From a virus (lineage: Duplodnaviria > Caudoviricetes): a stretch of 46,021 nt of DNA. The stretch spans positions 1 to 46,021 of the IMG/VR virus record IMGVR_UViG_3300046323_000666; one strand, written 5' to 3'. A program made the translations under genes and the position numbers. This document shows, in pieces, positions 7,272 through 10,936 of the stretch. The notes under the pieces were generated by a model. That model was given only the letters and a program-made list of their open reading frames with translations. It ran no database searches and was not told the DNA's origin. Every line of letters begins with the position of its first letter. The first letter of the stretch is position 1.

Positions 7272-7388
7272 TAACGTTATCTCGCTTGGCTTAGTGCCGA
7301 GTTATGAAAACTAAATTATCTAATTAAAAATAAAACGTTATGAAAAACGATAAAAACGAAAATAAGGCATTGAGCCAAACGAGTGTTA
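7272..7388. repeat. attC-like site 1 (117 bp)
   Basis: TAAC 7272; arms CTCGCTTGGCTTAGTGCC (7281-7298) / GGCATTGAGCCAAACGAG (7366-7383); GTTA 7385. Confidence 0.85.
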
Positions 7389-7636
7389 GCAGTAGTATTA
7401 ATGCACTGATTTCTAAATTTGATAATGGATTAGAATTGTACCAAAATAATGCGGTTTTTGCAAATTGCATAGAACACTTATTACGAGGTGGAGATATTTA
7501 CAAAATGCTTGAACAAGTTGTAGTAATGCAAGATAAAACACAAGAAAAACTTACTGAACTTCTTTCGAGTGGGGCTTTAAGACAAGAAATTATAATTTCC
7601 AAAGATAAATTTGATGAATTATCGAGTGGTTTGTAA
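7340..7636 (+). CDS. Cassette 1 hypothetical protein (98 aa)
   Basis: Starts inside the site 1 loop; ends just before TACTGCTAAC. Confidence 0.75.
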   Translation: MKNDKNENKALSQTSVSSSINALISKFDNGLELYQNNAVFANCIEHLLRGGDIYKMLEQVVVMQDKTQEKLTELLSSGALRQEIIISKDKFDELSSGL

Positions 7637-7645
7637 TATTACTGC

Positions 7646-7717
7646 TAACAGGCGCGCGCTTTGCGCAGGCTTTGGAGCTTGCTCAAAGCGTGAGTTAGGC
7701 GAAGGGCGCGCCTGTTA
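7646..7717. repeat. attC-like site 2 (72 bp, GC-rich)
   Basis: CTAACAGGCGCGC / GCGCGCCTGTTAG perfect inverted repeat, with inner hairpin GCTTTGGAGC-TT-GCTCAAAGC. Confidence 0.8.
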
Positions 7718-7747
7718 GGCAAAAGGTGTTCGCGCCTTTTGCCTAAC
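7714..7747. repeat. Gene-less cassette body (34-bp hairpin)
   Basis: GTTAGGCAAAAGG-tgttcgcg-CCTTTTGCCTAAC. Confidence 0.8.
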
Positions 7748-7873
7748 GTTATGCAGCTACACGAGCGGTTGGGGCAAGAAAAGCCTAGACTTTCGGAGTT
7801 GGAACAGAACTTAAAAACAAGAACAAAAAATGGAATTAATAACCAAGCCCCAACTGTCGTGTAACTGCTGTTA
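7744..7873. repeat. attC-like site 3 (130 bp)
   Basis: Arms GCAGCTACACGAGCGGTTGGGGC (7753-7775) / GCCCCAACTGTCGTGTAACTGC (7847-7868), one extrahelical G; GTTA 7870. Confidence 0.85.
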
Positions 7874-7908
7874 TGCGGGGTTGTGGATGGTTAAAACAAA
7901 ATATTATT

Positions 7909-8208
7909 ATGGAAACAATTGCAATTATCGGACACGTTGACCGCGGTAAAACAACATTAACTGCCGCTATTAAAAGTGTTTTAGAACAAAAACATAGCGT
8001 GTATCAAGATGCTTTTGAAGAAGTAATTGAGTATAAAAATCCTTATGCTTTTCTAAACGAAAAACCAACGCCAAGTAAGTCAAGGTTAAATAAATGCAAA
8101 AAAGGGTTGCACGAATTTCAGGAAACAAATCACGACATAGTACAAGAAAATATGTTTGTAAAAAAATGGGCGTGTATGCATTGTGGTACTTTAATGCACG
8201 AAAGGTAG
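7909..8208 (+). CDS. Cassette 3 protein: EF-Tu-like P-loop peptide plus C-terminal Zn-ribbon-like motif
   Basis: IAIIGHVDRGKTTLTAAIKSVL; CKKGLH...CMHCG; ATG 7909 has an A-rich leader. Confidence 0.75.
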   Translation: METIAIIGHVDRGKTTLTAAIKSVLEQKHSVYQDAFEEVIEYKNPYAFLNEKPTPSKSRLNKCKKGLHEFQETNHDIVQENMFVKKWACMHCGTLMHER

Positions 8209-8218
8209 CAATCCTGCA

Positions 8219-8347
8219 TAACGTATCGTGGCTTTGTCTTGTTGCCGAAAAAATAAGACCTAAATTTTAAATTAAAAACAGAAAATGGAAAGTACAAAAC
8301 CAACATTAAATGAAGCCGAAAACGGCAATAAGTCAAAACCACTGTTA
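8219..8347. repeat. attC-like site 4 (129 bp)
   Basis: Arms GTGGCTTTGTCTTGTTGCCG (8228-8247) / CGGCAATAAGTCAAAACCAC (8323-8342); GTTA 8344. Confidence 0.85.
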
Positions 8348-8755
8348 CAAGCAGTGTTTTTAGCACCTTATTTGCCTTACAAAATTGAAGCATTAAACCC
8401 TTTTGATGAAACAAACAAAATAATTGGTTTAAAAAACGAAACTTATTTTATAGAAAACGGAAATAGTTACGCTTATGGAGATATTCGAGATTGCAGACCG
8501 ATTTTAAAACCTATTTCAGATTTATCATTATTAGTAATTGAAGAATTTGAAAAATACGATGGAAAAAGAAACGGAAAAGCGAACGAAGAAATTATAAATC
8601 TTTTTTGCGAAGAAAACGGAGTTGATGAAATTATTGAGAATATAGTTTTATCAAGTTTACCCTATGAATGTGTTGAATTTATGTTTAGAAATCATTATGA
8701 CTTCTTTGGATTAATTTCAGAGGGATTGGCAGTTTCAATCCACGATGTTGTGTAA
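8285..8755 (+). CDS. Cassette 4 phage hypothetical protein (156 aa)
   Basis: LAPYLPY...PILKPISDL...HYDFFGLI pattern, recalled from Bacteroidota phage proteins; starts in the site 4 loop. Confidence 0.8.
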   Translation: MESTKPTLNEAENGNKSKPLLQAVFLAPYLPYKIEALNPFDETNKIIGLKNETYFIENGNSYAYGDIRDCRPILKPISDLSLLVIEEFEKYDGKRNGKANEEIINLFCEENGVDEIIENIVLSSLPYECVEFMFRNHYDFFGLISEGLAVSIHDVV

Positions 8756-8764
8756 CATTGCTTA

Positions 8765-8854: not shown

Positions 8855-8917
8855 CCTGCTGGTGCGGTTAATTAAAGAGGAACTTAAATTGAAATACTAA
8901 ACAAAAAATTATTAAAA

Positions 8918-9841
8918 ATGAGCGTAGGCAAAAAAGAAAAAATAAACGTATTATCATTATTTGATGGTATTAGTTGCGGAATGATTGCTTTGGAAAGAGC
9001 AGGTTTTGAGGTTGAAAATTACTATTCATCTGAAATTGACAAACAAGCAATATCAATAAGTAATAATAACTACCCAAACATTAAAAGACTTGGTAGTGTT
9101 GAAAATTGGAAAGAATGGGATATTGATTGGAGTAAAATTGATTTACTTATTGGTGGAAGCCCTTGTCAGGGATTTTCTTCAAGTGGTAAAGGATTGAATT
9201 TTGATGACCCAAGAAGTAAGTTGTTTTTTGAATTTTCAAACATATTGAACCGCATAAAAGCAGTCAATCCGAATTTGAAATTTATGTTGGAAAATGTAAA
9301 AATGAAAGAGGAGTGGTGTAATGTAATTACTGAATATTTGAGTGTAAATTATGTAGAAATTAATTCTCGTAATTTTTCAGCACAAAATAGAGTGAGATAT
9401 TATTGGTGTAACTTTGAAATACTACCATATACCGACAAAGGAATTATGCTTGAAGACATTGTAGAAGATGACTACATACATTCAGCAGCCAAAAGAACAA
9501 GACCAATAACAACCGAAGGACATAGAAAATCACTTTGCCTTGAAGTAAATGGAATTGGTAAAAGTATGTGTTTAGTTACAGTAAATTTAAACAACCTTTT
9601 ATCTCCATTACCCAAAGGAAGATATAAGGATGTAGGGCAAAATAACTACCCTTACAGAGTAATGACTACAAATGAAATGGAGAAACTACAAACTGTACCT
9701 GTTGGATATGTTGGTAATATAAACAATACCAAAGCCGCTAAAGTATTGGGTAATGGATGGAATGTAGATACGATTACTCATATTTTTTCTTCTTTTAAAG
9801 GGGAGGAAATTTTTAATAATTTTTCTAACGAAAATGTTTAA
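8918..9841 (+). CDS. Cassette 5 DNA cytosine-5 methyltransferase
   Basis: Motifs LFDG, GSPCQ, ENV, QNRVR, GNGW. Confidence 0.92.
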   Translation: MSVGKKEKINVLSLFDGISCGMIALERAGFEVENYYSSEIDKQAISISNNNYPNIKRLGSVENWKEWDIDWSKIDLLIGGSPCQGFSSSGKGLNFDDPRSKLFFEFSNILNRIKAVNPNLKFMLENVKMKEEWCNVITEYLSVNYVEINSRNFSAQNRVRYYWCNFEILPYTDKGIMLEDIVEDDYIHSAAKRTRPITTEGHRKSLCLEVNGIGKSMCLVTVNLNNLLSPLPKGRYKDVGQNNYPYRVMTTNEMEKLQTVPVGYVGNINNTKAAKVLGNGWNVDTITHIFSSFKGEEIFNNFSNENV

Positions 9842-9868
9842 TCGAAGAACGAGTGTAGCACTTGCAGG

Positions 9869-9993
9869 TAACGTTCATTATTGTACTTGTGGCAAATAAA
9901 AAAGCCTAGTATTTCAGTTTAAAACAGAATAAAAAGATAAAAACAGGAATTTAAATTTAACCCGAAACTTGCCATAAGTACAATATATTGTTG
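9869..9993. repeat. attC-like site 6 (125 bp)
   Basis: Arms TATTGTACTTGTGGCAA (9879-9895) / TTGCCATAAGTACAATA (9969-9985); core GTTG 9990. Confidence 0.85.
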
Positions 9994-10021
9994 TAGGTAG
10001 GTTTTTTACATCACACGAATT

Positions 10022-10201
10022 ATGAGAGCAAGTTTTTCAATTAATCTTCACGATAGCGATGGAGATGTTTACCAAAAATGCTTATTAATCCATTTAGAGG
10101 ATAGCGTTATTTTGCAACTAAAAGACAAATCAGATTTAGATCAACTAATTAAACATCTTAATCAGATTAAGAAAGAATTAGACGAAAATTATCCTGCGTA
10201 A
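10022..10201 (+). CDS. Cassette 6 hypothetical protein (59 aa, MRASFSINLHDSDGDVYQKC...ENYPA)
   Basis: Translated by hand; absent from the ORF track; fills the cassette. Confidence 0.75.
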   Translation: MRASFSINLHDSDGDVYQKCLLIHLEDSVILQLKDKSDLDQLIKHLNQIKKELDENYPA

Positions 10202-10232
10202 CTTTGGCTACAAAGTTGAGTAAACTTACCTA

Positions 10233-10322
10233 CAACGGACGGTGCTTTATGTCAGGTTTGCCTTGCAGACACTTGAAATTTAGCACCACCGTTGATGGCA
10301 AACTTGCATAAAGCACTTGTTA
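10233..10322. repeat. attC-like site 7 (90 bp), homologous to site 5
   Basis: CAAC 10233; arms GTGCTTTATGTCAGGTTTGCC / GGCAAACTTGCATAAAGCAC with an extrahelical T; GTTA 10319. Confidence 0.85.
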
Positions 10323-10356
10323 GCGGTAGTTTATTAATGGAATTAAAATTTAAAAT

Positions 10357-10815
10357 ATGGGAACACAAGTAGTAGGAGAAAGTAACAGCGTTGAGTATAG
10401 CACTCCGTTGAAAATAGTACAGCCATTGATAAACGAATTTGGCTTGACAAGAGATGTTTGTGCAAGTGCATTAAATCACAAACTGCCCGATTATTGGACA
10501 AAGGAAGATAATTCACTTGCTATGAATTGGGAAGGTAATTGTTGGATGAACCCACCATTTAGCAGAGATTTGAATAAGTGGGTAAAAAAAGCGTGTAATG
10601 ATGCTGAAAGGTTTGGGGGAACGAAAGTTTGTTTAATACCTGTGAGAAGCAATACAAAATGGTGGGCGGAAGTTTGTGTAAAAGCAGAAATTCGTTTTAT
10701 CAATGGAGAAGTAAATTTTAATGATGAAGAACGTGGACTTTGGTTGCCGATGTGTATTATTATTTTCGGTGAGAAGGCAAAGGTTGGCACGTTCTCTGTC
10801 TTAAATTACCGCTAA
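10357..10815 (+). CDS. Cassette 7 phage-type DNA N6-adenine methyltransferase (Dam-like)
   Basis: TP...DVCAS...WMNPPF motif; stop codon lies in the TAAC core. Confidence 0.88.
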   Translation: MGTQVVGESNSVEYSTPLKIVQPLINEFGLTRDVCASALNHKLPDYWTKEDNSLAMNWEGNCWMNPPFSRDLNKWVKKACNDAERFGGTKVCLIPVRSNTKWWAEVCVKAEIRFINGEVNFNDEERGLWLPMCIIIFGEKAKVGTFSVLNYR

Positions 10816-10936
10816 CGGAAAAGATTGTCGTGGTTGGGATAAAACAAAAACTAATAATTAAATTTAAAACAAAACTGAAAGATGGAAAACAATGTAAAAG
10901 TTCAAGACGATACCCAATCACTACAATCGTGTGTTA
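10813..10936. repeat. attC-like site 8 (124 bp)
   Basis: Arms GATTGTCGTGGTTGGG (10823-10838) / CCCAATCACTACAATC (10913-10928); GTTA 10933. Confidence 0.85.

Follow-up and report, generated by a model that had tools for sequence, protein, structure and literature searches.

The DNA analysed here (the window, taken at its full length of 46,021 nucleotides [nt]) is a 46-kb linear virus record, IMGVR_UViG_3300046323_000666, that is present in freshwater metagenome runs. Between an excisionase-like gene and a tyrosine recombinase gene at 12431-13261, it contains three DNA methylase genes and a series of small genes. These genes are separated by attachment (att) sites that open with TAAC-G, end in T-GTT and form a stem of roughly 20 base pairs. 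The att sites of 110-135 nt are attC-like hairpins, and their A-rich loop is likely to be where translation of the gene of that cassette actually starts. Comparison with related loci indicates a genuine feature that is common across this group of phages. The host is probably a member of the Bacteroidota, as judged from the closest genome-bin matches of the recombinase, which mostly carry Flavobacterium, Pedobacter, Flavobacteriaceae or Chitinophagales labels, along with some others. The array consists of the following features, in which ORF denotes an open reading frame and starts in loops are predicted.

7272..7388, + strand: attC-like site 1, 115 nt from AAC to GTT; leader-bearing, frame 0
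7340..7636, + strand: loop-started ORF, 98 amino acids (aa), with 15 leader codons before the GTT
7646..7751, + strand: atypical GC-rich double site that closes cassette 1; itself a cassette that is degenerate or has no gene; forms a terminal repeat with the flank at 7387
7744..7873, + strand: attC-like site, 128 nt; loop ATG at 7830, out of frame with the next gene
7909..8208, + strand: own-start cassette gene, ATG 36 nt after the GTT
8219..8347, + strand: attC-like site, 127 nt; leader-bearing, frame 2
8285..8755, + strand: loop-started ORF, 156 aa; phrog_10841 body from residue 26
8765..8854, + strand: short attC-like site, 88 nt; no gene-fused leader; heads the C5 DNA methylase 8918-9841
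9869..9993, + strand: attC-like site, 123 nt; A-rich loop without ATG; heads the own-start ORF 10022-10201
10233..10322, + strand: short attC-like site, 88 nt; no gene-fused leader; heads the Dam-family methylase 10357-10815
10813..10936, + strand: attC-like site, 122 nt; leader-bearing, frame 0
10882..11256, + strand: loop-started ORF, 124 aa, with 17 leader codons
11261..11384, + strand: attC-like site, 122 nt; weak in-frame loop ATG at 11339; heads the C5 DNA methylase that runs to 12355, likely from 11420
12375..12430, + strand: predicted attI-like site, a lone TAAC; also the 5' region of the recombinase gene
12431..13261, + strand: tyrosine recombinase, 276 aa; weak SAM_4 N-domain match

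The sites were detected as AAC, 4-6 nt, a stem, 1-2 nt and GTT, a pattern that itself imposes the asymmetric spacer. Nine such sites lie on the + strand in 7200-12400; the - strand and the remainder of the window have none, and 199 of 200 shuffles also gave none. A plain spacing pattern failed to set the sites apart from background (12 forward versus 9 in the control). Across 41 recombinase loci (L001-L041, a count that excludes three fragments), 99 sites were found upstream of the recombinase gene and 0 downstream. Folding z-scores of single sites on the + strand were mixed (-4.2, -1.0, -1.4 and -3.2). Considering all sites, lengths cluster near 64-70, 80-90, 122-128 and 185-190 nt, and the longest class (185-190 nt) bears leaders of 33-48 codons. 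The double site at 7646-7751 comprises two nested hairpins, and similar elements are found at 3577-3644 of L018 and 9853-9920 of L019.

Probable translation starts in the hairpin loops

The original prediction held that three ORFs begin inside att sites, and the ATGs at 7340, 8285 and 10882 do lie in the loops of the sites at 7272-7388, 8219-8347 and 10813-10936, respectively. They precede the GTT by 45, 59 and 51 nt, and each reads openly through the right arm into a body, of 83, 137 and 107 codons. The 15 nt upstream hold 9, 11 and 10 A, with a predicted unpaired probability of 0.68-0.75. The first ATG after the GTT occurs at codon 56, 133 and 121, respectively, and the first ATG, GTG or TTG at codon 33, 24 and 59. 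The codon at position 24 of the 8285 ORF is a GTG and a possible alternative start. Site 1 also contains a 7-codon mini-ORF (7304-7327) in the loop upstream of the ATG at 7340, which in L078 and L082 is in frame into the leader.

Two further statements about the window fared less well. The three leaders had been described as similar to each other; those at 7340 and 10882 cross the GTT in frame 0 (Val) and that at 8285 crosses in frame 2 (TTA, Leu). One homologous leader family is rejected by BLASTP, which found the 7340 leader similar to neither the 8285 nor the 10882 leader. The ATG at 11339, proposed as a fourth case, is indeed in frame but is doubtful as a start. It has C at -3, 5 A in the 15 nt upstream and an unpaired probability of 0.27, lies within the inner stem of the predicted fold, and belongs to a hairpin family with stops 13 and 11 codons after the GTT in its two other loci. 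A firm fourth loop start was rejected on these grounds of weak context, low accessibility and a closed frame in relatives. The ATG at 11420 is the likelier start of this methylase, though its accessibility is also predicted to be poor (0.30). An ATG at 7830, overlooked by the original prediction, has the best context in the array (12 A of 15) and is out of frame with the next gene. It opens a 36-codon ORF (7830-7940) that overlaps the start of the 7909 gene.

Frame provides evidence from related loci. The loop ATG was picked by A content alone, blind to frame. The full set of 309 long sites (of 420 distinct sites) includes loci fetched with leader queries; 204 have an A-rich loop ATG, of which 175 reach the GTT and 129 run 40 or more codons beyond it. 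The two shifted frames gave 31 and 69 reaching the GTT and 4 and 21 running 40 or more codons, and the short sites gave 0 of 90. A recombinase-anchored set, reduced to one site per 75% cluster, contains 128 long sites, 85 of them with an A-rich loop ATG. Here 70 reach the GTT, versus 9 and 27 in the shifted frames, and 54 run 40 or more codons past it, versus 2 and 7; the figure for short sites is 0 of 62.

As for sequence context, among 153 starts picked without the A filter, A is present in 73-75% at -13 to -11 and in 58% at -3, compared to 36-42% and 21% at 407 other in-site ATGs. G accounts for only 0-6% at -16 to -10 of loop starts. Adenines at -3, -6, -12 and -13 are positive determinants of initiation in Bacteroidota (PMC6847099). 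The adenine positions and low structure of the loop starts match these determinants, albeit more weakly at -3 than in genes with their own start.

A Pfam scan of 140 loop-started proteins yielded 31 with a match, 9 of which were dropped because they matched late profile positions only. No ATG is present between the GTT and the domain start in 17 of the 22 mappable proteins, and no ATG, GTG or TTG in 11 of the 22. Homologues of the 8285 protein appear to give a natural control for leader versus native start. By a pattern-based sorting, with a query protein that included the leader, the 120 homologues comprise 50 with a native 8-residue start (MKLELKHL type), 57 with a frame-2 att leader, 4 with a frame-0 leader and 9 others. 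The suggestion that such leaders could serve as a protein-level marker was borne out, in that the leader of the 8285 protein is present at 20 of the 21 viral loci retrieved with that protein. A hairpin was detected in 16 of those 20, and the other 4 have TAAC-G and a left arm by eye. The single body-only match has the native start and no hairpin.

It is the frame, rather than the peptide, that appears to be kept. Only 10 of 38 single-base codon differences between leaders are synonymous, with no sign of selection on the leader peptide among these 38 differences. When related hairpins were compared for net indels, the frame was unchanged in 37 of 50 pairs after the ATG, compared to 27 of 148 before it and 1 of 14 in ATG-less hairpins, a test that is partly circular and uses pairs that are not independent. 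Stop-codon counts pooled over frames were uninformative.

Translation initiation at the loop ATG is well supported by this comparison of sequences, and frame, context and comparison likewise favor the earlier proposal that the loop is a Bacteroidota-type initiation region that encodes the N-terminus. Ribosomes would start at the loop ATG, about 40-70 nt before the GTT, using the upstream adenines and no Shine-Dalgarno sequence, and would read the right arm as a leader of 14-23 residues.

Several observations, in addition to the limits of the indel test, count against such starts or against their generality. An A-rich ATG is lacking in 43 of the 128 long recombinase-anchored sites, and loops without ATG are also A-rich (0.44 versus 0.53), so A-richness by itself proves little. 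A at -3 is found in 86 of 141 leader starts versus 148 of 207 own-start cassettes, and in 30 of 37 non-array ORFs of the window; the 7340 start has G at this position. A usable ATG follows the GTT in 5 of the 22 Pfam cases, and GTG or TTG in 6 more. Nor is the arrangement universal in the window, where the six long sites comprise three in-frame leaders, one doubtful case, one out of frame and one without a loop ATG. The loop ATGs could be incidental, with the true starts located after the GTT at GTG, TTG or unusual codons and the A-rich loop a product of purine skew. Known attC bottom strands are purine-rich (PMC5027507), a start after the GTT is present at 207 of 279 non-leader sites, the GTG at codon 24 of the 8285 ORF is available, and the ATG at 11339 is probably incidental. 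It is very unlikely that this explanation accounts for the loop starts as a whole, given the frame match (54 versus 2 and 7), the 11 of 22 domains that begin before any ATG, GTG or TTG, the frame-keeping indels, and the 10882 ORF, which has no such codon until codon 59.

The original prediction also raised the possibility that the hairpin regulates translation, for which no support was found; the start is in an open loop, a median of 37.75 nt before the stem. Regulation by occlusion or by a switch would draw on the stability of the RNA stems of the window sites (-21 to -39 kcal/mol), and attC hairpins described previously are able to impede the translation of cassettes that lie downstream of them (PMC8876359). 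The next gene could also be dampened by an out-of-frame loop ORF, for example 7830-7940. Against these points, the start region is predicted to be open (0.69-0.70 unpaired), and the stem begins at least 23 nt after the ATG in 95% of 134 sites. For loop ORFs that are out of frame, stop positions range from -106 to +77 relative to the next start without clustering there, and just 5 of 31 are located within 4 nt of it. Regulation is improbable, and it is plausible that the hairpin insulates the start from upstream context.

The recombinase and the crossover at TAAC

The enzyme beside the array has the catalytic residues of a tyrosine recombinase; R132, K157, H221, R224, H247 and Y256 are invariant in 14 aligned proteins. 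It lacks the insertion specific to IntI. Residues 177-198 align to IntI4 180-244, with about 43 fewer residues across the insertion, and the TIGR02249 score is 158.6 bits versus a cut-off of 265. The lone TAAC at 12375 is predicted to be an attI-type fixed site beside the recombinase gene. All 18 aligned loci have its AAC, preceded by variable sequence and followed by conserved sequence, and two deletion joints described below end there. In most aligned loci the recombinase ATG is about 55 nt after this TAAC.

Published attC bottom strands open with TAAC and close with T-GTT (PMC9892861); IntI cuts the AAC of the bottom strand, which folds better than the top strand (PMC5027507). The core flanks here are G in 98% and T in 97%, the + strand folds better in 318 of 424 sites, and group II introns also insert on the + strand at TGT/T. 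These markers indicate that the + strand corresponds to the attC bottom strand. The array would thus extend leftward from 12375, as in an integron whose integrase is divergent, except that its genes are reversed; the longest open frame lies on the attC bottom strand in 198 of 208 viral bodies. With genes on the bottom strand, each hairpin heads its own gene and a gene can start in its own site, an arrangement on which use of the loop as a start would depend. Bottom strands are skewed towards purines, which may have provided an A-rich loop from the outset. Distant genome-bin relatives (L147, L151, L154 and L158, with 35-46% recombinase identity) have similar sites and genes on the classic top strand. 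The recombinase would act as IntI does, on the folded + strand.

The unit that moves was examined through its ends. The 10 nt after a GTT and the 10 nt before the next AAC match at 9 places in 172 of 326 adjacent pairs and never at 10, and the flanks of one site match each other at 7 or fewer of 10. This terminal repeat of the body is compatible with a cut at either joint, and neighbors were compared instead. The repeats never reach 10 of 10 (for example, 7394 with 7639) in that G, the eighth base after the GTT (78%), faces T at -8 before the AAC (92%), a G-T combination that forms a conserved pair on the + strand at cassette ends.

Among 11 pairs of bodies with a likeness of 93% or more, both hairpins are common to 3 pairs and the upstream hairpin alone to 8; near-identical bodies from different arrays keep the upstream hairpin in 8 of 8 pairs. 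Across 424 sites, 17 pairs have only hairpin and body in common and 0 have only upstream neighbor and hairpin in common; identity begins at the TAAC. Metagenome contigs (runs X1-X3) contain deletion joints 11260->12375 and 10812->12375 with a 4-letter TAAC overlap, corresponding to the exact absence of one or two hairpin-plus-body units beside the lone TAAC. On the other side of the balance, these joints have just 26 nt on the short side at 90% likeness and possibly derive from related phages or other organisms, and run X1 is possibly the source sample of the window.

Sequence comparison indicates that the cassette is a hairpin plus its downstream body, closed by the terminal inverted repeat of the body and moved by exchange within TAAC. 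The leader would stay with its own gene in routine shuffling and would not pass to the next gene that lands. Alternatively, routine + strand crossover could occur at the GTT, each site then passing its leader on to any cassette inserted after it, in the manner of ORF-11 in attI1. This mode would account for 172 pairs of hairpins at least 90% alike before unrelated bodies, for 13 same-body pairs with different hairpins, and for loose contig ends after 8347 and 8854. It is nonetheless highly improbable and was rejected as the routine crossover, since no pair keeps upstream neighbor and hairpin with a changed body, the upstream hairpin is retained in all near-identical pairs, both deletions seen cross at TAAC, and the strand markers place the recombining AAC on the left arm. 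The att loop had been called a portable initiation region. That holds only for the apparently slower joint at the GTT; routine shuffling moves the hairpin together with the gene that follows it.

The second joint at GTT

Comparison of loci shows that leaders and bodies have also been re-paired at the GTT. Hairpins at least 90% alike precede unrelated bodies in the 172 pairs above, with 93-100% identity up to GTTA and background identity one base later. The converse 13 pairs share the body, including the first bases after the GTT, and differ in the hairpin; both counts are inflated by the two families searched for. The site family of 7340 is open in frame 0 in 15 of 16 loci and that of 8219 in frame 2 in 16 of 18. 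The 7340 body has other leaders in L069 and L070, and the 10882 body has another leader in L066-L068. In 4 of 4 runs, contigs diverge from the window immediately past 8347, and in 2 runs they do so immediately past 8854. Chimeric hairpins in L049 (near 2300-2430) and L074 (near 2620-2740), in which the outer left arm mismatches the right arm, hint at exchange inside the site. At 133-1524 of L015, the N-terminus of a loop-started methylase is fused in frame to a recombinase without its first 61 residues.

Three routes to this re-pairing may be considered. The GTT mirrors the AAC cut, so recombination of the opposite strand would give a GTT joint. A rare reaction of this type would be the most likely cause, with selection for an open frame (0 and 2) filtering the products and start-less bodies gaining a ready-made start. 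The reaction occurs for IntI1 at 1,000-10,000 times below the normal level (PMC5027507), a figure for IntI1 and not for the enzyme of the window. No GTT-to-GTT joint in the window was present among the listed contig joints, which counts against this route and leaves the step without direct support. The recombinase is the first candidate, although its involvement falls somewhat short of probable.

A second route, with the loop starts real, is that group II introns made the swaps by TGT/T insertion, homologous recombination between copies and precise loss. The prophage L070, which encodes a 72%-identical homologue of the 7340 body, has three att sites at 956-5190 (also seen in L253) with a group II intron, encoding a reverse transcriptase, between GT and T. 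The introns are in sense to the genes, and the two complete copies are 100% identical. Removal of the intron would place a 41-codon leader from the loop in the same frame as the body (125 codons). TIGR04416 is the sole profile above cut-off for the intron protein, and Rfam RF00029/RF02001 match the intron. Among distinct 5' exons of this intron family, 28 of 31 end in TGT (13 TTGT, 11 GTGT, 3 ATGT and 1 CTGT) and 15 were detected as att hairpins; 16 of 20 3' exons start with TG or TA. The insertion point is the leader-body joint, where swaps occur. Known group IIC-attC introns target TTGT/T in the R'' core of the bottom strand, and a similar role in cassette formation has been proposed for them (PMC7923331, PMC3001079). 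Phage genes run on the bottom strand, which puts the intron in the sense orientation and would allow its removal by splicing. However, only one viral contig of those searched contains this intron and swaps are common, loss of an intron was not observed, and the terminal repeats of bodies are left unexplained. The intron route is ranked below the recombinase because of the single viral contig, and it is possible but rather unlikely.

The third route also has real starts, with shared leaders mostly reflecting repeated birth of cassettes from a few att templates by an unknown capture step, and with little later swapping. Att leaders were added to the 8285 family on more than one occasion, in frame 0 as well as frame 2, and some forms keep part of the native N-terminus. 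Conserved att families associated with unrelated genes are typical of chromosomal integrons. Against this route, the 13 pairs that share a body and the first bases after the GTT but not the hairpin require exchange after birth; it is a possibility of about the same modest standing as the introns.

A broader and tentative interpretation is that the arrays are gene-building machines. The att loop would act as an interchangeable exon that supplies start and leader; at the GTT joint, start-less pieces of ordinary phage genes would be captured into expressed cassettes through opposite-strand recombination or through group II introns in sense orientation. If so, the leaders preserve traces of how cassettes were born, which in integrons has yet to be explained. 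A single element of 125 nt would act as DNA recombination substrate, ribosome landing site and coding sequence. The predicted loop starts would explain why many Bacteroidota phage proteins share unusual N-termini of low information content. Such leaders cause false homology matches (19 of 21 matches to the 8285 protein mainly match its leader) and allow cassettes to be found by searching protein sequences only. With the att-to-gene joint at the 5' end of the gene, the frame makes each joining event scorable and the origin of cassettes testable.

Other features of the window are less closely tied to these questions. Two more tyrosine recombinases on the - strand (5609-6853 and 13258-14451) flank the array module. 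The first 30-40 residues of the 7909-8208 product weakly resemble the P-loop region of EF-Tu, below family cut-offs, and are followed by a Cys/His-containing tail. A 49-nt repeat, possibly a late promoter, has four copies between late structural genes (35356-35404, 41525-41573, 42719-42767 and 45352-45400). Promoter and terminator scans were at chance level (32 versus 28.9 and 5 versus 2.9, respectively), as was the Bacteroidota -7 motif (74 versus 72.85), and no promoter is claimed. An Rfam scan found no matching family for the sites; two sub-threshold mir-H2 matches at 7645-7718 were taken as chance. No RNA dataset was among those listed as containing positions 7000-13300. A search of cultured phages with the 8918 methylase gave mostly unrelated enterobacterial phages among the matches listed.

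Comparison with known systems

No paper on in-frame starts inside att sites or on these arrays was found in the literature covered, which included few subscription papers. The closest published sites are those of the CALIN (cluster of attC sites lacking integron integrases) reported by Qi et al. 2023 (PMC9892861) in Polaribacter phage P12002L. P12002L_attC1 has the same TAAC-G...T-GTTA design as the window (Table S3) and gave no recombination with IntI1; starts inside sites are not mentioned in the parts of that paper covered here. At a lower detector threshold, the P12002L genome contains 10 such sites, 3 of which have annotated genes starting in the loop, and no integrase is annotated. Polaribacter phage Leef_1 has 4 sites, a 33%-identical recombinase and one loop-started gene. 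The two phages offer cultured models, Leef_1 for the array, recombinase and loop-started gene together and P12002L for the sites.

Translation aids are known from class 1 integrons, where ORF-11, ORF-17 and ORF-18 of attI1 and short attC ORFs have this role (PMC8876359); the portion of PMC8618304 covered adds nothing further on translation analogues. As with ORF-11, a recombination site here bears a translation start that helps cassettes without their own. The ORF-11 type consists of short separate ORFs that act by coupling or reinitiation, have a Shine-Dalgarno sequence and are located in one attI or in the attC of the upstream cassette. In the window arrays the start is present in many sites, has no Shine-Dalgarno sequence and is fused in frame to the gene of its own cassette. 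In-frame fusions dominate, G is at 0-6% at -16 to -10, and stops do not cluster at the next start, none of which fits an ORF-11-type mechanism.

The introns of L070 share with group IIC-attC introns the TGT/T insertion point in the bottom-strand R'' (PMC3001079, PMC7923331), which here is the leader-body joint. Known introns of this group are antisense to cassette genes, whereas that of L070 is in sense and splits leader from body. Initiation in Bacteroidota (PMC6847099) uses the same adenine positions and low structure; here they are found inside the loop of a recombination hairpin, with A at -3 rarer than in ordinary genes.

The array is integron-like in its AAC/GTT core, its folded and strand-biased site, the AAC crossover, the attI-like site by the recombinase and the methylase cargo. 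It is unlike integrons in that the recombinase lacks the IntI insertion, the genes are on the bottom strand instead of the top, an orientation reported as never seen for wrongly inserted cassettes (PMC5027507), and the site itself would encode the start of the gene.

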